64,000 nt of DNA from a virus (taxonomy: Duplodnaviria > Caudoviricetes). The notes beneath the pieces are model-generated. The model searched no databases. It was not told the origin of the DNA and saw only the letters and a program-made list of their open reading frames with translations. Location of the stretch: positions 96,001-160,000 of IMG/VR virus record IMGVR_UViG_3300032265_002598. The stretch is one strand, 5' to 3'. This document shows positions 19,301 through 38,463 of the stretch, piece by piece. Every line of letters starts with the position of its first letter. The first letter of the stretch is position 1. The translations under genes were made by a program, and so were the position numbers.

Positions 19301-22300
19301 AGGATTTTTTCATCCTAATAGTGGACTTACATATAAAACCAATTTAAATATTAATGGAAATAATACTATAAAAAATAGCCCAATAGATTATTCAAGACAA
19401 TCGCCATATATCTCTTATGACCAAGAACTTTTTAATTCTGGTGCTCCATATAATTCTGGTTCTATATTAATAGGAAATTTTACGGATGATGTTAAAAACA
19501 TATTATCTCAAATAAATGGTTTTGGATCTCATAAAAAACCCAGATTATATTTGCAACTAGGTAATAGATGGTATGAGTATAATACTGATGACACTTTTGG
19601 ATTTAAAAAAGATAACACTACATATATTGGAGAACCATATCTATTTAAATATTCTAGTCAAGATTCTTTTGAAAAAGTTGATGGTCCAATAATACCAGTA
19701 TCTCCAAAAGGACACATTAACTTTAGTTTCATGTATAATTTCATTCCAAGTGGCAATAAAATTACACATCACTCAGAAAGAAAATATCCTTTCCTATATA
19801 CTGATTTCATTTCAAATCCAAACGATATTAGGACAGCCAAATTAAATGGAATAAGACTATATTTTCTATTAGGAGAAAATGATACGGCACTAATTACATC
19901 ATATGATTCTATTAGTCTTTTGACAGATGATGACCAAAATAAGATTACTGCAACATATCCCGAATTAGTATTGGCTAATGGAGAAAGATGGAAATATAGA
20001 GGAAATGGAGCAAAAAATAATCCTAATTCTTATGCTCTAGTAGACTATAATCGTTTATATACGAATTTTAGTGATTTGCATATTGACTATGAAAAAAGAA
20101 ATAGACAGGGATATATTTACGATACTAAAAAGAAATGCAATCAAACTGTTAAAATTTATAATAAAAAAAATCCATCACAAAATTATGATGCTAAAATTAT
20201 TGAAAAAAGTTTATATCATATAACCGTAGATAAAAATAAAAATAAAATTGTAAGAAAAAAGAATCTTATTAATGAGTATAGAAATTTTTACACAGAAATT
20301 AAATTTGATCAAGATATACGATATGCTCAATGCTATATAGATTTTAGTTTATTAGGTTTAGATTCATCTAATCAAGAAGGAGCGGATTCATTTTTTGTTT
20401 ATCAGAATCAACCTACTTTAAAAGGTGAGATTGATAGTTTATTAGTCAATGGAAATTATTCAACGAAATGGTCTGATATTTTTAATTTTGATGGTAAATT
20501 AACTAATGATCTATCTCAATATTTTCATGGGTCTGATTATTTGAATAGCATATATCCATCTAGTCTTTATGATAATAACTTTTTTAAGATTATTATCAAT
20601 AATGCTGACTATAAAATTCATAGATATAATATTAATCTAAATAACAATAGTCTATTTGTTACTCATTCTGGTTTAGCAAATTATGCTATACATCAACAAT
20701 ACAATATCGGTTTAGATATTTTAACTAATGGATCTATGGAAGATTATCAAAATTATCTTTCTTTTATAGATATTAATATTCCTCAGTCTGGTGATAATGT
20801 AAAAAATGATTTTAGAGATAAAATTCAACCTTATTTACAAAAAATGATTGATGATAATAAAATACCTTTGGGATCTATTAAAATTAGTGGTATTTTAGCA
20901 AATTTGGGATCAACACATACTTATGACAATGATTTTATTTCACCTACCGCTAATTTATTTTGGGTAAATTTAAAAGGTGGAAAATTACTAGAATCTGCTT
21001 TTATGATAAATCCTGGCAAAACTTTTTATACAAACACATTGAGGGTAGATAGTTCTCCTTTTCAACTTTCACAAATTAATTCTGCAACGAAAGTAAATTC
21101 AAATGGTTGTTATAAAGTTTTTTATCCATCGACTCCTACAAATACCCAAACTTTCGCAGATAACGTACTAGAATTTGATCATTTCAAACAAGTTCCTTAT
21201 ACTGGTGGTATTTTTTCTAGACTTCCAGTATATTGTGATACAGATAATCTTCCGGCCGGAGGATGTTCAAGTTTGGCTTGCGGAATGAATACTGCTGGAT
21301 ACGTTTCATATAGTGGAACATATAATATACAAGTTAATAAAACAAAAACATTAGAAGAATCAAACGATATTCCTTATATATTATCATATGATGGAGGTTT
21401 TTATAATCCAATAGGCAATACTGGCTTAAAATATATTCAAAGATTAGAATTATCTCCAAACAATACTCTATATCCTGTATCTAATTGTGATATCAATGTT
21501 TCTCCCAGACCAATAAATAATAGAATTTCAGTACTTAACGAAGAATATCAACAGTTAATGGGTAATAGTATAGTAAATGATCATACAACATTAGTTCAAA
21601 ATACTGATATATTAGCTAATGAAATGTTTTTTAGATTAATATATGGAGAAAAACAAAAAATTAATTTAAATACTATAGATAATGTTAATGATTCAATTTC
21701 TTTTAAAGATTTGATTAAATACAATTATCCTAAGATAGAAGCTAAAGATGTATATAAAAATATCCCATATGATTTGGATAAATTAGCAGATACTAGTAAT
21801 AGAAAAATTTCTGGTAATTTATCTATAAGAGGCATTTTAAAAGTTGGTGATTCTATTACAGCACAAATTGCTGATAAACAAATTGATATTTCAATAGTAA
21901 GACAAGATGGTAAGATAATGTCTGTAGCAACAGTAGATGGGAAAAGTGTGTCGGGGGTGATATATACTGAATTTTCTACTACTAACAATTTAATAGTTAG
22001 TAATAAAATACTTTCTGGATATACTTTTTTGAAAGCGTGCGTAGAATTAGAAAGAAGAAATCTTGGATTTTTACACGCCTTTACTTCAGGGAAAATTAAT
22101 GGAGAAAAAGACTGTGATGGTAATCAACTTGTTTACCCTTGGTGGCCTATTATGGATAGAACAGCATGGCTAGCAATTGCTCAAATAGAGAAAGATGCTC
22201 AAGCAGCTAGAAATGCAGGAAATAATGATCTTGCAGATTTATTATCGAAAAGTGCTCAAGATAAGTATAAACCATATGCTTGTCCATTCCCATCAGATTT

Positions 22301-24194
22301 TAATCAACAAATATATTTTAATACTCATTTTTATACTTGCAGTCCGGAGTTTCTCGATGTTCAAGGAAGAAAAATTCCAGAGTCGCCATTTCCTGCTGGT
22401 GCTGGTGGTTGTGCTTATACAAGTAGTGCGGGGCCACCAGTTAGAAACTGCACCAATTGGGGAGTTGGCCTTGGTGTAGATGCTTTAGATTCAAATATAT
22501 ACACAGTCTTAAGTACTAAATCTAAAAAGGTAAAATTAGGAGGAATTGCAAGAGGAATTTTTGGTTTAACCAAACCATGTTTCATGGAAGGAGCAAGCAT
22601 TAATCTTACTAGAAATGGATATGGTGATATTGAAGATCGTATAGGAGGAGGGGCTATTGCTAGTCCAGGAGCTATAGGTAGTAAAATTACTTCTACAACT
22701 AGTCCATGTGGAACCTGTTATACATTAGATTATAAAGATCCATTAACTGGATATAATTATTATGATCCAATAAAGAAAAAATCAGTACCTCCATCTGATG
22801 GAAATCTTGAGGATAATTGTGAATGTGCAAATTGGGATTATGGCTATTGTAGAAATTCTAATAATTCTAGTTGTTTATGTAGTACTGATTCATATGATTA
22901 TGATGAATTTGATTATAATTTTGAATATTGTAGATATAATATTTCTTTAAAAGCACACAAAAGAAAAATAAAACAAAATTCTAATGCAACATCCTCTTCA
23001 GCAGCTAAACCCTGTCAAAACACAACTCCGGGTGGAACAATAGGTGGAGCTAGTGTTAATGTAGGAGAAGTACAAGAGGAATTTAGTTTCTTGGAGAGTT
23101 CTGCTGGAGCCCCAGCAATATGGTATATACATAACGCAGAAAGAGTTTTTACAAACCCTGCATATGATCCTCAATGTCCAGATGACCTATGTTCTATTGA
23201 GTATGATAATAATACATTAACTATTACTATGCCGAGTGGCCCTAGTTTATGTATTAATAATAGTATTAGAAATAATTGTCCAATTATAAATATTACTGTT
23301 CCAAATAATACTTATACAGTATCTGATTCTATAAGTAGCAGTTGTGATAATTGCGGAGTTGAACCTAATAAAATTAGTATGGTTGATCAAAAACAAAATT
23401 GGGAAATTATTACTGAGACTAGAACATGTATATTAGGAACTATATTAAGTGCTGGAAATCCAAATGAAAATGGGCCTATAGAGATGGGTTGTCAAACAAT
23501 AGGTTGTGGATACTGTAACATATGTTGTACTGATCAATGTTGTAATGATGATTATACTAATTGTGGACAAGGATTAGCTCTTCAAGAAGCTCCAGACTCT
23601 TTTCCTTGGAGTGTTTGTATAACATATTCTGAACCAGTTGTTTGTATCGGTGGTAATAGTAAAGGTTCATTGGTTGGTGGTTGTGATATACCAATAGTAT
23701 ATCCTATTATAACATCTAATAATGCTGCAAATAATAGATATATAAAATTATGGAAAGATCAAATGAGCCAAAAAAGACTCAATACTGCTCCATGCTTTAA
23801 TAATAAAACGATAGATGTTAATGATATAGTAGAAGGTGTTGTTCCAGGATCTTGTAGCGATATTAATTTTACTACAGTTGTTTATAATGGTATGAAATAT
23901 AGAGCAACTATGGGAGATCCAGCAATCGGCTCAAATCCTGTAACATTCACAGTTGCTTCTTATACTTACCAGTATCGTAGACCAAAAACTATACAAGATA
24001 TTTTTAAAGGAGATGAATTAACAGCAAAATGTAATAATGTTGTAGCTTCATGTCCGTCAACAACCCCATTAAATATGACAGAAAGAATTAAAACACTAGA
24101 TTGCAACACTACTCCAACATGTTATGATAATAATATTCCAACATGCGATAATGATAATTATTGTTGTAGAACAGGAAAGACTTCAATATCATGA
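16356..24194 (+). CDS. Very large Cys-rich putative virion protein (2612 aa)
   Basis: Uninterrupted ORF. Cys clusters at the N-terminus (MSCC, CGYC, ICCTGSGSC) and densely in the last ~600 aa (CGYCNICCTDQCC, YCC). Confidence 0.55.
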   Translation: MSCCTLFNRSLFTEATLTGLSVEVDISSLKNLIPAFNSGTSGLWRPIIVSGNVSNHNYVDLLTQPQTTLRQAFDPFNCSSAITYAGDYNDLEKPIFGLDCGYCNPLEPIDTICCTGSGSCDNRMLKDDYLPKIPLLNQKYLNEFYDWKYYNQFPSVSNKPLGLEHFIKLSNLKNFTITSSNNQSNTSEAKMMIDWSLKERMGEIPYDKETSQYDNIDDHNKAYAKFLQVGKTCGNFILTNLEPDGSGYNPYYPIFSGLIGPTGQNIPWPNWRDVLPTPQEFSAIPYGFNNKTYDNIFVKHNKLGSHWKWNYTSGILGWYRYYQTGIVNDPRAISGVDLYISPGDVFYATNDGPEYSPYNGNRTTGTKFCPSGLKLIQNNSVVGIIPSGSKFTYISNNLYDRFYSIYTALDFINEEDNTRNSNVNLLSPIEIFELSALLCTSPEYDQITIDLLKRNLDQNYILNEYRQLSGFNSDMSASKIGSISKLDFVQTTGDLITALANKYGAYVWFPPQATTTLEFTKDIDAACYIDLDFDMAVKLSDTYAISFPGSNGMNDCSEPSFSKNFDYSQSLQLANLTLESRRDIRTRFDQTCNSGIINISKVAKMAGIYFNNNLIKEIVYSTGIEHFYNKYPKAELSRKYKATAANLRIDKAAFHNQGGVYYDSKIFGADNSTIFVNNVSLNFSNTPRAKIKFTTKDAGIKLYGLKIEKLRGSTSGTYECRAFPNKNSCGCFGLLTFPEYPYICNDSSVVFTNDPLRYTPGLSTANSPILKSYGGYSASYISGILGSQTIPNHPAVGTSLTAVNKKIDPEMPYGCEQSIQVSLPNYVYSSWSLSLPSYDTVHADIWAQVLENVDLFRTTLSWQNPDNPDGGFDSIPNPGYQRFASQVNINDNISVYDKQKKIVVQKGDGVTNIGVKITNPYLSAILENTHVLYPPNGNSCLASNTIGGDENILVPIKFSRIPRKQLINFAIPSTTGMGVLKRGFFHPNSGLTYKTNLNINGNNTIKNSPIDYSRQSPYISYDQELFNSGAPYNSGSILIGNFTDDVKNILSQINGFGSHKKPRLYLQLGNRWYEYNTDDTFGFKKDNTTYIGEPYLFKYSSQDSFEKVDGPIIPVSPKGHINFSFMYNFIPSGNKITHHSERKYPFLYTDFISNPNDIRTAKLNGIRLYFLLGENDTALITSYDSISLLTDDDQNKITATYPELVLANGERWKYRGNGAKNNPNSYALVDYNRLYTNFSDLHIDYEKRNRQGYIYDTKKKCNQTVKIYNKKNPSQNYDAKIIEKSLYHITVDKNKNKIVRKKNLINEYRNFYTEIKFDQDIRYAQCYIDFSLLGLDSSNQEGADSFFVYQNQPTLKGEIDSLLVNGNYSTKWSDIFNFDGKLTNDLSQYFHGSDYLNSIYPSSLYDNNFFKIIINNADYKIHRYNINLNNNSLFVTHSGLANYAIHQQYNIGLDILTNGSMEDYQNYLSFIDINIPQSGDNVKNDFRDKIQPYLQKMIDDNKIPLGSIKISGILANLGSTHTYDNDFISPTANLFWVNLKGGKLLESAFMINPGKTFYTNTLRVDSSPFQLSQINSATKVNSNGCYKVFYPSTPTNTQTFADNVLEFDHFKQVPYTGGIFSRLPVYCDTDNLPAGGCSSLACGMNTAGYVSYSGTYNIQVNKTKTLEESNDIPYILSYDGGFYNPIGNTGLKYIQRLELSPNNTLYPVSNCDINVSPRPINNRISVLNEEYQQLMGNSIVNDHTTLVQNTDILANEMFFRLIYGEKQKINLNTIDNVNDSISFKDLIKYNYPKIEAKDVYKNIPYDLDKLADTSNRKISGNLSIRGILKVGDSITAQIADKQIDISIVRQDGKIMSVATVDGKSVSGVIYTEFSTTNNLIVSNKILSGYTFLKACVELERRNLGFLHAFTSGKINGEKDCDGNQLVYPWWPIMDRTAWLAIAQIEKDAQAARNAGNNDLADLLSKSAQDKYKPYACPFPSDFNQQIYFNTHFYTCSPEFLDVQGRKIPESPFPAGAGGCAYTSSAGPPVRNCTNWGVGLGVDALDSNIYTVLSTKSKKVKLGGIARGIFGLTKPCFMEGASINLTRNGYGDIEDRIGGGAIASPGAIGSKITSTTSPCGTCYTLDYKDPLTGYNYYDPIKKKSVPPSDGNLEDNCECANWDYGYCRNSNNSSCLCSTDSYDYDEFDYNFEYCRYNISLKAHKRKIKQNSNATSSSAAKPCQNTTPGGTIGGASVNVGEVQEEFSFLESSAGAPAIWYIHNAERVFTNPAYDPQCPDDLCSIEYDNNTLTITMPSGPSLCINNSIRNNCPIINITVPNNTYTVSDSISSSCDNCGVEPNKISMVDQKQNWEIITETRTCILGTILSAGNPNENGPIEMGCQTIGCGYCNICCTDQCCNDDYTNCGQGLALQEAPDSFPWSVCITYSEPVVCIGGNSKGSLVGGCDIPIVYPIITSNNAANNRYIKLWKDQMSQKRLNTAPCFNNKTIDVNDIVEGVVPGSCSDINFTTVVYNGMKYRATMGDPAIGSNPVTFTVASYTYQYRRPKTIQDIFKGDELTAKCNNVVASCPSTTPLNMTERIKTLDCNTTPTCYDNNIPTCDNDNYCCRTGKTSIS

Positions 24195-33985: not shown

Positions 33986-34013
33986 ATTATAGCTTGATGG
34001 AAGCCAGAGTCAA
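33986..34013 (-). promoter_or_regulatory. Sigma70-type promoter for ssb
   Basis: TTGACT-16 nt-TATAAT on the minus strand. The -35 box overlaps the TGA stop of the dnaE C-half. Confidence 0.7.
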
Positions 34014-35641
34014 GTCTTAGGAATATACGTCTTTTCGACTATGAACGAATCACCAGACTTGGCTCTATTACCTTTGATAATGATAACATTACCATCAAAC
34101 AAAATGTTACGATAAGCTTTATATGCTTCCGGAAAGAATACAACAGAATCTATTACTCCCGTGCCATCACTCATGGTAACAAATGCCATCTCTTGACCAG
34201 GGGTTTTGCCAGATTTAGTTTTGGTAACACCTACACTCTCTATCTCTCCACATAGAATAATATTATCTTTAAGAGTAGTATTCTTAAAATCTTTACAAGT
34301 TGTATTAGTCATTGTAATATCATACATATCAACCTTAGAACAAGTAATACTACAGCCCAGGAAAGCATCCTCCGCATCAGATATCCAATCTGGATTATCT
34401 TCTAAAGAATATGGAGGTTTATTATAACTATTAATTAGATCAAGTATAATACTTTTTCTGTTTTTATTAGATTTACCATTATGATACAAATCATATAAAG
34501 CATCTCCTATAGACTTATATTGATACAGGTTAGCTAGTATGAAATCCGATTCTTTTTTTGTTAATTCAGATACTAATCCAAACTCAAATAACATCCCGGT
34601 TCTTTGTTTACCCAAATAAGATATAGCACCACTTTGAATTAAAGCTTTGGCTGATGTAGAATTGATATTTATCAAGACTTTCATAAGCATCTCAACCCAA
34701 TTCATAGTATCAAAATCTAGTTTTTTATCTGTTTTAATTTTAATCAACTTATCAAAAACAGACTGTCCAAAACCCTTAATATCTGTTAATCCAAAATATA
34801 TCTTATTGTTTTTTAGAATAAACAATTGGTTTAGATTTCTAATATCGGGTATACAAACAGGAACATCCATCTCATTAGCATTTTGAACTAATTCTTTGAT
34901 CTCTGCTTTAGGATCAATTTTATCTTTAGCAAATCTTAAGTACGCTGCAAAAAAGATTTTTGGAAAGTGAGCTTTTGTATATGCTGATAAATAACTATTA
35001 ATCGCATAACTAACAGCATGAGATTTATTAAAGGAATATCTTTGAGATTTTTCGATCCATCCAAAAATTTCTTCAGCTTGAGAGGTAGCTACTGTACCAA
35101 CTTTTTCTGTTCCTTCTAAAAATTTAATCTTAATCTTAGCCATCTCTTCTGGCTTTTTCTTACCGATTGCTTTTCTCAACATATCTGCTTCTTGAAGATC
35201 AAAGCCAGCTACTATTTTAGCAATTTCCATAGCTTGTTCTTGATAAATCATTTCGCCATATGTTCCTTTTAGAATGGGCTCTAAAGAAGGATGATAGTAA
35301 TCTACAGACTCTTGACCATTCTTTTTATCTATAAAATGGTTAGAAACTGATTTACCATCTCTAAAAGCTTCCAAACATCCTGGTCTCATAATACTAATTA
35401 AAGCAGAAAGTTGTTCAATATTTTCTGGCTTTAATTTTTTGGCCATAGATTTACCTAGTCTAGACTCCAATTGGAAACACCCCTTTGTATTTCCATCCGA
35501 AATTAAATCCCAAGTCTTCTGACACTCTAAACTAATCTCTTCTATTTTTGGATTAAATTTAAGAGTCATTCTGTCTTTGTCTTCATGTTCAGACAGAATA
35601 TCAAAAGAACAACCGCAACTATATTGAAATTTTTTAGGCAT
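34010..35641 (-). CDS. dnaE: DNA polymerase III alpha, C-terminal half (fingers/thumb, HhH, OB fold)
   Basis: GCFQLES, ISIMRPG, IYQEQ, DMLRKAIGKK, YSFNKSHAVSYA, FGLTDIKGFG, C-terminal OB fold. Confidence 0.92.
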   Translation of the reverse strand: MPKKFQYSCGCSFDILSEHEDKDRMTLKFNPKIEEISLECQKTWDLISDGNTKGCFQLESRLGKSMAKKLKPENIEQLSALISIMRPGCLEAFRDGKSVSNHFIDKKNGQESVDYYHPSLEPILKGTYGEMIYQEQAMEIAKIVAGFDLQEADMLRKAIGKKKPEEMAKIKIKFLEGTEKVGTVATSQAEEIFGWIEKSQRYSFNKSHAVSYAINSYLSAYTKAHFPKIFFAAYLRFAKDKIDPKAEIKELVQNANEMDVPVCIPDIRNLNQLFILKNNKIYFGLTDIKGFGQSVFDKLIKIKTDKKLDFDTMNWVEMLMKVLININSTSAKALIQSGAISYLGKQRTGMLFEFGLVSELTKKESDFILANLYQYKSIGDALYDLYHNGKSNKNRKSIILDLINSYNKPPYSLEDNPDWISDAEDAFLGCSITCSKVDMYDITMTNTTCKDFKNTTLKDNIILCGEIESVGVTKTKSGKTPGQEMAFVTMSDGTGVIDSVVFFPEAYKAYRNILFDGNVIIIKGNRAKSGDSFIVEKTYIPKT

Positions 35642-36335
35642 GAGATGTTGATTGAAATGAGTCCTTAAACTTAATCTTATTTCCTAGGTTACGATGCAGT
35701 CTCATAAAACGAACCAGAATTTCTGCACAATCCTTAACATCTTTAAGAGCATCATGGGCACCTTCTTTATTAATACCAAGATAATCTCTTAGAGTATCTA
35801 AAGAAAGATTTTTTAGATCACTATTGTTTTCAAACCAATAGAAAACTAAATTCATAATATCTAATACATCTCTTGGATAAAAAATATCACTTCTATCTTC
35901 CTTATTAGTATTACCATATTTGCGACTAAGTCTATCAATAATTGGTAGGTCGAACCTATTAATATTATAGCCAGCGGCAATAGGGGCACTAAATTGGCTC
36001 TTCTTACTAGACCTGCTATGGTGCATAGTCAAATAATTTGTAAATAACTTCCATGATTGATCTTGAGAGGGATATTTCTTCCACTCTGCTAAAATAGACT
36101 CTTTTGAAGAACCTCTTACTTTAGCATGAAAATCTAATATGTCTGTAGTATATTGGTAATCTTCATTATTTGCCAAAACTTCTGGTTTAAAAAAGATATT
36201 AAATTCAGAATTTGGAACAATCTCTAATTTCAATGGATCGATAATCACTGCGGCAATCTGAACAGGACTACAAGACTTTGGGTCAGAGCCATCTGTTTCA
36301 AAATCAAACACACAAATTTTGTTATAGTTAATCAT
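35634..36335 (-). CDS. DEDDh 3'-5' exonuclease (DnaQ/epsilon-like)
   Basis: VFDFETDG (Exo I), AGYNINRFDL (Exo II), HDALKDV (Exo III). Confidence 0.88.
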   Translation of the reverse strand: MINYNKICVFDFETDGSDPKSCSPVQIAAVIIDPLKLEIVPNSEFNIFFKPEVLANNEDYQYTTDILDFHAKVRGSSKESILAEWKKYPSQDQSWKLFTNYLTMHHSRSSKKSQFSAPIAAGYNINRFDLPIIDRLSRKYGNTNKEDRSDIFYPRDVLDIMNLVFYWFENNSDLKNLSLDTLRDYLGINKEGAHDALKDVKDCAEILVRFMRLHRNLGNKIKFKDSFQSTSHA

Positions 36336-36532
36336 TCGGTGGTCTCAACCTCTACTTCTATTAATGGTAGAACCTGAATCTTTTGTTCTGGATTGTCTAA
36401 TCTAGCAGCATTTATAACTGTACAACAACTAATTCTTTGTTCTTCAGTCTTAGTATACTTATTAAGTTCAAATGTAAATACCTTACCAATAGCTAAATCC
36501 ATAAATTTAATCTTTTGGGTTGCCATAATCAA
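36332..36532 (-). CDS. Small hypothetical protein (66 aa)
   Basis: Fills the gap exactly, with 4-nt overlaps at both ends. Confidence 0.6.
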   Translation of the reverse strand: MIMATQKIKFMDLAIGKVFTFELNKYTKTEEQRISCCTVINAARLDNPEQKIQVLPLIEVEVETTE

Positions 36533-38422
36533 TCTCCTTTTGATAAAATGTCTTGAATAGTCATGATCTTATCTAACATTGCCACGCCAAGAATATCAAA
36601 CTTGATAATACCTAACGCTTCTAGGTCTTGCATCTCCATGCCAGCTATAAGTTGGTCATTCTTTGAATCATATACCATAGGACACAGAGTATTTAATGGT
36701 TGAGCACTAATTGCAATACCAGCCGCATGTTTAGACTGGTTAGACTTAGTACCTTCTAATCTAATAGCCTGTTCAAACCGTTTGGCAAGTGGTCCCTGCA
36801 ATTCATTTTTTTCATCTATATAGCACCATTCTTTCAGTTTATCTGGCTCATTTTCTAAAGCCCACCGAATAATAGATGCTTCGCCAGTTTCTTCTTTCAT
36901 TTCTTGAAGATCATCAGCAATTTTAGCTTCATCTGGAATACTTTTAGTAATCTTATTCATTTCATCAAAAGATATATTACCATATACTCTTAATACATCC
37001 TTAATAGCTCCACGACCCTTAATAGTATTAAATGTAATCATTTGGGAAACCTTATCAGCCCCATAACACTGTTTAATATATTCAATTACATTTTCTCTTT
37101 TGTTGATAGGTACGTCTACATCAATATCAGGCATAGAGATGTGATCTTTACTATTTCGTCCAGCATTGTAAAATCTATCAAATAATAGACCATATTTAAT
37201 AGGATCAATACTAGTAATACCGATTAAATAAGAGACCAAACAACCGGCAGCACTTCCTCTTCCCGGTCCCGGAAGCCAATTATTTTTTCTAACATAATTC
37301 ACAATATCTTGTACAATTAAAAAATAGCTAGAAAGATCTGCTCCTTGTAGAACCTCAAGTTCATACTTAATTCTATTAACATAATCTTGTTGCTTATCTT
37401 TGTCTATTATATTAGCAATTTTATCTCTCCATCCATTACGACATAATTGTCTGAGATATTCATCTGGATTAGCTCCGTCCGGACAAGGGAATGGAGGTAA
37501 ATGTGGCTTATCTAAGATATTATAATTTTCACATAATGAATCTACTAATTTGGTATTTTCCATTTCTTCTTCAGTATGAAAATGATCCATTTCTTCTGGA
37601 GATAAGATATGGAAGTTGTCAGATGTAAAAAAGCACCCAAGAGGCACTTCCTCGTCGTTACTAATCTTCCTGCTGATCTCTGGGAAGGTCGTTTTTAAAT
37701 TATTACAGAGAAGCACCCTTTGATCTACAGCATCCTCCTTACGGCAATAGTGAGCGTCTGGTGTGGAGATGATTTTTGTGTTGGTCATTTTGGCCAAATC
37801 TCTCATAGCACCAGTCAAAACTGTTTGGATAGGAGAATTGGCCGAATCCATTAATTGTGCTTCTAAAAAGAAATTTTCTTTACCAAAAACATCTTTAAGT
37901 TTACCAATTTGATCAATACCTATATTTTTCCAGTCGCCAAGTAATTGATTATCAACACTAATCTTATCTGCCAAATAGGATCCAGCATGACCACAAAATC
38001 CAATAATATTATTATTACAATATTGTGCAAGAGTCTCTATATTTAGTCTTGGTTTATGATAAAAATGATCGGGTTGATTAGACTCAGAAACAATTCTAAT
38101 AAGACTCTTCCATCCCTCGTAGTTCTTGGCTAGAATAACAAAGTGAGTTAGGTCTTTATTTTCTTTTGTTTTAATCTTAGGATCTTGATCACAAATATAA
38201 ATCTCACACCCTAAAATAGGTTTAATACCCTTCTTCTTCATTTCTGTATAAAATTTAACTGATCCAGCAATATTACCATGATCAGTCAATGCGCAAGAAG
38301 TTGCACCTATTTCCTGACATCTTTCAGTAATAGTTCTCGGTTGCGATAGTCCATCCAAAAGTGAGTACATAGCCCACCTAAGAATGGACATGCAGAGGCA
38401 CATATCCTCTAGTCATGTCCAT
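36529..38422 (-). CDS. dnaE: DNA polymerase III alpha, N-terminal half (PHP plus catalytic palm), interrupted by a 10-nt coding gap at 38371-38380
   Basis: SD AAGGAG, then ATG 38422 gives MDMTRGYVPLHVHS, then TAGGTGGGCT, then MYSLLDG...TDHG...GCE...DAHY...GRGSAAG...MPDIDVD...KFDILG. 627 aa if the 10 nt are skipped. Confidence 0.9.
38371..38380 (-). other. 10-nt insertion (TAGGTGGGCT) inside the PHP HxHSxYSLLDG motif; candidate bypass element or micro-intron
   Basis: Read directly from the sequence. It contains an in-frame TAG and shifts the frame by +1. The mechanism is inferred. Confidence 0.75.
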
Positions 38423-38463
38423 ATCTAATTTTCTCCTTATTTCGTTGTTCTAACCAAAAATAT

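Follow-up and report, generated by a model that had tools for sequence, protein, structure and literature searches.

In the 64,000-nucleotide (nt) stretch analysed here (the window; bases 96001-160000 of the complete 201-kb phage genome with direct terminal repeats, IMG/VR record IMGVR_UViG_3300032265_002598), the gene for the N-terminal half of the replicative DNA polymerase DnaE is interrupted after its fourteenth codon. Comparison with related sequences, together with RNA fold prediction, makes it likely that this site is a programmed short-range translational bypass, a 'stop-hop' in which peptidyl-tRNA-Ser would cross a short gap and join a 14-codon first open reading frame (ORF1) to the rest of DnaE (ORF2). 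Judged from the same comparisons, the interruption is genuine and under selection rather than an error. On the minus strand the sequence is ATG(38422) ... CAT GTC CAT TCT TAG GTGGGCT ATG TAC TCA CTT TTG GAT GGA, so that ORF1 (MDMTRGYVPLHVHS) stops at UAG after HVHS and MYSLLDG resumes 10 nt later in the +1 frame; a first-pass annotation of the sequence had already noted the 10-nt gap, and both the stop that follows HVHS and the 10-nt distance to MYSLLDG are confirmed. The interrupted frame comprises the following elements:

38432-38438, minus strand: Shine-Dalgarno (SD) sequence AAGGAGA, 9 nt 5′ of the ORF1 start and unpaired in both predicted RNA conformations.
38381-38422, minus strand: ORF1, MDMTRGYVPLHVHS, 14 codons, containing the first strand and the HxH motif of the DnaE PHP domain.
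38381-38383, minus strand: proposed take-off codon UCU (Ser14); UCN in all 48 distinct cassettes (interrupted sites) found.
38378-38380, minus strand: in-frame stop UAG, immediately 3′ to the codon used for take-off; a stop occupies this position in 48/48 cassettes.
38371-38380, minus strand: 10-nt coding gap UAGGUGGGCU, from the stop through the landing triplet; the gaps of relatives measure 6-12 nt and fall in all three frames.
38371-38373, minus strand: proposed landing triplet GCU, matching the tRNA-Ser anticodon at 2/3 positions.
38368-38370, minus strand: resume codon AUG (Met), equivalent to the M/H/T residue between HxHS and YSLLDG of ungapped relatives.
36529-38370, minus strand: ORF2, the rest of the DnaE N-half, with the PHP domain from profile position 8 and the palm/NTPase domain.

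ORF1 carries what ORF2 lacks. Positions 1-7 of the Pfam PHP profile are missing from ORF2 and present in an ungapped relative (L006), and ORF1 supplies the missing positions; the motif YxPLHVHS is retained in all cassettes, with synonymous changes. Gapped relatives have AAGGAG or GGAG upstream of the ORF1 start, and the dnaE start of ungapped relatives is an ATGA overlap with the stop of the upstream nuclease gene.

When viral contigs were scanned with the protein as guide, 80 loci with 58-99% identity were recovered, many of them uninterrupted (M..Y.PLH.HS-[M/H/T]-[Y/F]SLLDG) and others interrupted at exactly the same position. A DNA pattern written for the interrupted form matched 72 viral contigs, and a relaxed pattern, open to any insert behind the Ser codon, added six with UGA stops or UCG or UCA take-off codons, for a total of about 78 IMG/VR contigs and 48 distinct cassettes. 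The relaxed pattern gave 14 new matches, eight of which were unrelated chance matches; it recovered no in-frame sense insertions, and every true cassette insert begins with a stop. Measured from the stop through the last non-coding triplet, gap length is 6 nt in one of the 48 cassettes, 7 in two, 8 in three, 9 in ten, 10 in 15, 11 in 16 and 12 in one. The frame required is 0 in 12 cassettes, +1 in 17 and +2 in 19, and since gaps occur in all three frames, only a frame-independent mechanism fits all of them. A constant +1 frameshift of the kind used by prfB was considered and rejected, as only those 17/48 cassettes require +1.

The codons bordering the gap are strongly constrained. Take-off codons are UCU (30 cassettes), UCC (16), UCG (1) and UCA (1), followed by UAA (26), UAG (19) or UGA (3). 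The last gap triplet is UCU (16), UCA (13), UCC (2), UCG (1), ACU (9), GCU (5), GCC (1) or UGA (1); this putative landing triplet is a Ser codon in 32/48, and its middle C is kept in 47/48 although it would lie unpaired in a loop. The sole cassette with a UCG take-off codon also has a UCG landing triplet. We also observed that all nine ACU landing triplets occur with UCC take-off codons. The resume codon is CAT in 23 cassettes, CAC in 13, ATG in 11 and GAA in one. Deleting the gap restores HxH-[S/T]-x-[Y/F]-S-x-L-D-G with no insertion or deletion relative to the 38 ungapped relatives, and the solved DnaE structures of Thermus (Taq) and M. tuberculosis have a spacing equal to that of the gap-deleted cassettes. 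The downstream 613-codon frame is intact across relatives (58-99% identity). Gaps in all frames, an invariant spacing that is restored, a stop after a fixed codon and a cognate-like triplet beside the resume codon together point to bypassing.

The cassettes are further marked by two conserved RNA hairpins, the first of which takes in the start codon:

38414-38422, minus strand: 5′ arm AUGGACAUG, the start codon and codons 2-3, forming 9 base pairs (bp) with 38392-38384.
38384-38392, minus strand: centre strand CAUGUCCAU, codons H-V-H, next to the take-off codon on its 5′ side; this strand forms the 3′ arm of the 5′ hairpin and lends its GUCCAU to the 3′ hairpin as well.
38394-38410, minus strand: inner stem-loop of the 5′ hairpin, AGAGG (38410-38406) with CCUCU (38398-38394).

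RNAalifold, applied to 42 cassettes, returned a single helix in which AUGGACRUG (the start codon and two further codons) pairs with CAYGUCCAU (the 9 nt before take-off). Across these 42 sequences, 99.5% of the cells of this stem are paired, and compensatory changes are present: alignment pair 25-51 is GC in 26, AU in 14 and GU in two, and another pair shows one A-U to G-C switch. None of 500 shuffles reached the score of the stem (0/500), and slid registers fell to 25-48% paired. The inner stem is predicted in nearly all of 43 folded cassettes, in differing registers. In the window, the 5′ hairpin has a predicted energy of -19.0 kcal/mol (z -4.4). When the whole genome was scanned for other short ORFs with a start complementary to the 9 nt preceding the last codon, no site but that in dnaE rose above shuffled background.

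The second hairpin lies on the 3′ side and has two parts:

38359-38379, minus strand: upper 3′ stem-loop, AGGUGGG (38379-38373, stop nucleotides 2-3 and gap) with CUCACUU (38365-38359, codons Y-S-L).
38349-38389, minus strand: whole two-part 3′ hairpin, with the lower stem GUCCAUUC (38389-38382) and GGAUGGAC (38356-38349, codons L-D-G-L) around the upper stem-loop.

Within the loop of the upper stem lie the resume codon and what remains of the landing triplet, and the stem begins at stop nucleotide 2, or at nucleotide 1 where the Leu codon is CUA. This stem was first seen by inspection and then tested; as MAFFT gap columns are out of register for it, its pairs were counted by a script that took the stop and the resume codon as anchors. 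It measures 5-8 bp in 33/34 distinct combinations of gap and downstream sequence, and consecutive pairs average 6.4 in natural combinations versus 3.75 in chimeras (0/2000 permutations). Compensatory sets among relatives are GUG:CAC, GAG:CUC, GCG:CGC and ACG:CGU, and in the UGA-stop cassettes L155:5986-6023 and L156:3292-3329, CUC replaces CUU at the paired Leu codon, a compensation (A to G, U to C) that involves the stop codon itself. The lower stem (GUCCAYUC with GGAUGGAC in relatives) has 8/8 pairs in 32/35 gapped versus 1/38 ungapped relatives, and GGATGGAC is present in 27/35 gapped versus 2/38 ungapped relatives, though the S-L-L codons between the arms vary freely. The two-part hairpin was predicted unaided by RNAalifold on the group with 11-nt gaps (-22 kcal/mol), and in the window it reaches -19.3 kcal/mol (z -5.9). 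The upper stem-loop also appears in the centroid fold of the window sequence. An SD-like GGUG in the gap was considered as a separate signal; its variable middle base co-varies with the downstream Ser codon, which the hairpin explains better.

The two hairpins are evenly matched, with mean energies over 43 cassettes of -17.7 kcal/mol (5′) and -17.8 kcal/mol (3′), and the corresponding regions of ungapped relatives reach only -0.6 (5′) and -4.0 kcal/mol (3′). As both use GUCCAU, they are mutually exclusive. On balance we lean towards a fuller interpretation, in which uncultivated phages of about 200 kb share a widespread natural stop-hop cassette built on a bistable RNA: the H-V-H strand would swap between the start codon and the L-D-G-L codons, its refolding would pull the mRNA forward by 6-12 nt, and bypass would be coupled to ribosome spacing. 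With the centre strand paired downstream in the 3′ hairpin, the start codon would be free and a ribosome could initiate. After translating 14 codons, it would halt, its peptidyl-tRNA-Ser on UCU and its A site over UAG. The start-codon strand, by now behind the ribosome, would then re-pair with CAUGUCCAU as this leaves the exit channel, pulling the mRNA forward; because the take-off codon directly follows the 3′ arm of the 5′ hairpin, closing nine pairs would need about the observed 6-12 nt of forward movement. UCU would be released, the mRNA would slide by 10 nt and the anticodon would re-pair at the landing triplet (GCU here, UCN in most relatives), whereupon decoding would restart at AUG to give ...HVHS-MYSLLDG..., the spacing of every uninterrupted DnaE. 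The predicted tryptic junction peptide of such a bypass product is GYVPLHVHSMYSLLDGLSQPR. Since the 5′ arm is the start codon, the 5′ hairpin would form only if no second ribosome had loaded, so bypass efficiency could depend on the initiation rate, a tie that we regard as speculative.

Several observations weigh against this interpretation. The landing triplet is ACU or GCY in 15/48 cassettes, including that of the window, and thus matches the Ser anticodon at only 2/3 positions. The cassette L160:3724-3759 (IMGVR_UViG_3300010234_000274) fits poorly, with a UCA take-off codon, a UGA stop, a UGA landing triplet and GAA as the resume codon; its gap is UGAGUGA (7 nt), and both hairpins are intact. 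Sequestration of the start codon by the 5′ hairpin could be simple initiation control, and the pulling attributed to that hairpin is an inference by analogy. Analogy likewise suggests that a stem starting at base 2 of the stop codon may shield that codon from release factors, a role proposed for the take-off stem-loop of T4 gene 60. The 14-residue ORF1 nascent chain is too short for a nascent-peptide signal like that of T4 gene 60; ORF1 has 13-14 codons in the cassettes, and any nascent-chain role of YxPLHVHS is confounded with protein function. Finally, for the clade of the window taken alone, in which the resume codon is AUG, reinitiation is a viable account.

An alternative interpretation along those lines is that translation terminates and reinitiates to give a split protein: ORF1 would be a leader peptide, ribosomes would restart at the AUG 7 nt past the UAG, the DnaE N-half would lack the HxH strand and the hairpins would tune initiation or coupling. 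Such an arrangement would suit a gene whose start codon is hidden by a hairpin and whose product is already two polypeptides, translational coupling is frequent among phage genes, and ATG is the resume codon in the clade of the window and in ten other distinct cassettes. We nevertheless consider it unlikely because 20 of 44 cassettes offer ORF2 no in-frame ATG, GTG or TTG as a start, either at the resume codon or before it, the resume codon is CAT or CAC in 36/48, and ungapped relatives show M, H or T to be the ancestral residue here; moreover, the PHP motif YxPLHVHS of ORF1 is under coding constraint, and a conserved C and a Ser-like landing triplet in the loop are left unexplained. The same landing triplet goes unexplained if each clade recodes in its own way, by a +1 frameshift at UCU-UAG (7 and 10 nt), a -1 or +2 frameshift (8 and 11 nt) or read-through (6, 9 and 12 nt), leaving 2-4 extra residues after HVHS. 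An A-site stop with hairpins nearby is a classical stimulator of frameshifting and read-through, and a +1 shift in the window would yield HVHS-RWA-MYSLLDG, but three different mechanisms would be required for one conserved cassette, UCU-to-CUU re-pairing is poor, the 9-nt class would require UAA to be read through, and unconserved extra residues would disrupt a spacing that does not vary between these phages, Thermus and Mycobacterium; we give this account little credence. A sequencing or assembly error, or a decaying pseudogene, is effectively refuted: one genome alone would resemble a 1-base indel, but the interruption recurs in about 78 contigs from dozens of metagenome datasets (judged by contig names), with compensatory changes in three helices and the 613-codon downstream frame intact.

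The first-pass annotation had drawn a different hairpin around the gap and had likened it to the P1 helix of a group I intron, reading the element as a bypass signal, as a relic of a lost group I intron, or as a substrate for a trans-acting ribozyme or nuclease-ligase:

38366-38394, minus strand: hairpin of the first-pass annotation, drawable in the clade of the window only, weaker than both conserved hairpins and in competition with them.

The letters were described correctly (38394-38366, minus strand, UGCAU GUCCAU UCUUAG GUGGGC U AUGUA), and the hairpin does form when this segment is folded alone (-10.4 kcal/mol, z -2.67, with 2/200 shuffles as good), but it is not a conserved structure. 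When the 91-nt segment 38430-38340 is folded, the minimum free energy structure pairs GUCCAU with the start-codon region and not with the proposed partner, and the two hairpins that compete for GUCCAU are about twice as stable. Among 42 gapped relatives, 66% of the cells of the proposed helix pair, with no compensatory change; its lower stem UGCAU:AUGUA occurs only where the resume codon is ATG (8-9/42), and RNAalifold did not predict the hairpin from the relatives' alignments. The notion of a bypass signal is strongly supported by comparative evidence, but through the covarying 5′ and 3′ hairpins and not through the one first drawn. Removal of the gap at the RNA level, whether by a micro-intron, by a group I relic with a P1-like helix, or by cutting and rejoining through a trans-acting ribozyme or a nuclease and ligase, we judge very improbable. 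The window does allow two 10-nt excisions that follow a U and end in G, as the first-pass annotation had pointed out, and the genome has one group I intron; this rule is, however, satisfied by 20/35 distinct relatives and fails in 15/35, and some of the excisions that obey it would replace the conserved Ser. Nor can a catalytic core fit into an insert of 6-12 nt. An Rfam scan of the whole window matched no family and no group I core, and a search of the genome for orphan group I cores had as its sole match an ordinary cis intron (RF00028, 62 bits; 202 nt) between anticodon positions 34 and 35 of tRNA-Leu(UAA), about 55 kb away. The RNA ligase search found neither an Rnl2-type ligase (PF09414) nor RtcB (PF01139), and a search with PF09511 was uninformative, as control genomes gave no match. 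Neither the intron relic nor the trans-acting enzyme therefore finds support in this genome.

Very few natural cases of programmed bypassing are known: gene 60 of phage T4 with its homologues, the mitochondria of Magnusiomyces and the terminase of one Streptomyces phage. In T4 gene 60, matched codons occur together with a stop, a stem-loop at take-off and another on the 5′ side (Manning and Atkins, bioRxiv 10.1101/2022.08.31.505936), and a preprint by Wills, Parsawar and Atkins states in its title that pairing of mRNA exiting the ribosome drives forward bypassing. The dnaE cassette shares with gene 60 a stop directly after the take-off codon, a stem-loop whose 5′ arm contains that stop, a further stem-loop upstream, a landing triplet adjoining the resume codon, the interruption of an essential phage replication gene and a patchy phylogenetic distribution. 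It differs in its gap (6-12 nt versus 20-50), in a landing triplet that sits in the apical part of the take-off stem-loop and not beyond it, in a 5′ hairpin that includes the start codon, and in an ORF1 of 13-14 codons where gene 60 has a 46-residue nascent-peptide signal; its hairpins share a strand and are isoenergetic, its landing triplet is mismatched in about one-third of cassettes where gene 60 has a strict match, and it has no clear SD-like element. Unlike the gene 60/MobA cassette, which lies in a topoisomerase gene with a linked MobA endonuclease, it interrupts dnaE and has no sequence homology to that cassette. Within 3 kb on the dnaE strand, no gap-specific gene that might be a candidate of the homing-endonuclease type was found, the opposite strand not having been examined and the ORFs not having been typed against endonuclease families.

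Shorter hops have been engineered. Synthetic stop-hops work in E. coli when matched codons flank a stop, with 9 nt encoding one residue (Weiss et al. 1987, as summarized in PMC5009743), and the 6-nt-gap variant L063 (UCU UAA UCU) has exactly that form; whereas the synthetic constructs are engineered and of low efficiency, the dnaE hop would be natural, conserved, up to 12 nt long and flanked by elaborate RNA structure. According to a 2016 review of recoding (PMC5009743), no natural in-frame stop hop was known, and short-distance counterparts had long been presumed. In the Streptomyces phage phiHau3, bypass between terminase frames g6 and g7 was shown by mass spectrometry (PMC10732093); there too, a phage gene in two frames is joined by bypass and local RNA structure brings the landing codon near, but the trigger is a rare UUA codon in the A site and not a stop, the gene is different and no start-codon hairpin is described. 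The 'byps' of Magnusiomyces capitatus mitochondria are many short coding inserts that are skipped between matched take-off and landing triplets (Lang et al. 2014, as cited in PMC5009743) and, unlike the dnaE cassette, they are mitochondrial, 27-55 nt long, spread over many genes and mobile GC-rich elements. The +1 frameshift of prfB (RF2) likewise combines a slippery codon in the P site with a stop in the A site, but its shift is fixed at +1, its re-pairing overlaps and its stimulator is an upstream SD-like element. We found no report of a dnaE bypass in the literature.

The cassette lies in a minus-strand replication block encoding a DnaB-like helicase, a primase, a dNMP kinase and a PD-(D/E)XK nuclease, followed by a split DnaE (window 34010-38422, minus strand) that comprises an N-half with PHP and palm domains, a 66-residue ORF, a DnaQ-like exonuclease and a C-half with fingers, HhH and OB domains. 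This gene order is kept in essentially all 80 related loci, with or without the gap. Megablast of the locus against cultured phages gave no match, and the closest GenBank phage DnaE has 34% protein identity, so there is no annotated precedent. As a mechanical ORF, the DnaE N-half spans 36529-38403 on the minus strand; the mechanical listing opens the long dnaE frame at the out-of-frame ATG 38403 (MCLCMSILRWAMYS...), and automatic annotation will accordingly mis-start or truncate DnaE in such phages. No tRNA genes were found in the window. Across the whole genome, ARAGORN identified a transfer-messenger RNA (tmRNA; tag GKTSLALAA) and eight tRNAs (Lys, Glu, Ser-ACU, Asn, Gln, Thr, Arg and Ile-UAU); this set, together with the intron-bearing tRNA-Leu, includes no UCN-reading tRNA-Ser and no suppressor. 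These genes lie outside the window:

Genome 195237-195586, 19936-23403 and 195784-195860: phage tmRNA and eight tRNAs, located by ARAGORN.
Genome 189675-189950, minus strand: intron-bearing tRNA-Leu(UAA); L154:1443-1718.

Position 34/35 of tRNA-Leu is the classical cyanobacterial and plastid intron site. Huge uncultured phages and Agrobacterium phage Atu_ph07 carry similar intron sequence.

To trace the cassette, a tree was built from 79 distinct N-half proteins, with ORFs of <550 residues caused by contig ends excluded and identical proteins merged. Gapped and ungapped forms are interspersed on this tree; well-supported branches force at least 10 changes and the most parsimonious number is 15, so there have been no fewer than 10 gains or losses of the cassette. 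We caution that the pattern search enriched the gapped set, which makes the interspersion meaningful but not the proportions. Synteny is identical in gapped and ungapped loci. Adjacent conserved codons reappear as reverse complements in the novel parts of the cassette, CAY-GUC-CAU (H-V-H) in AUG-GAC-RUG (M-D-M/V) and the Y-S-L codons in the gap, which hints at an origin by small inverted duplications.

If the bypass interpretation is correct, these phages hold a new natural family of a very rare form of recoding. With about 50 natural variants covering graded gaps of 6-12 nt, three frames, four take-off codons and three stops, and with rich covariation, the cassettes would form a ready mutational series for studying how mRNA refolding at the ribosome exit drives forward sliding and how the landing site is chosen.

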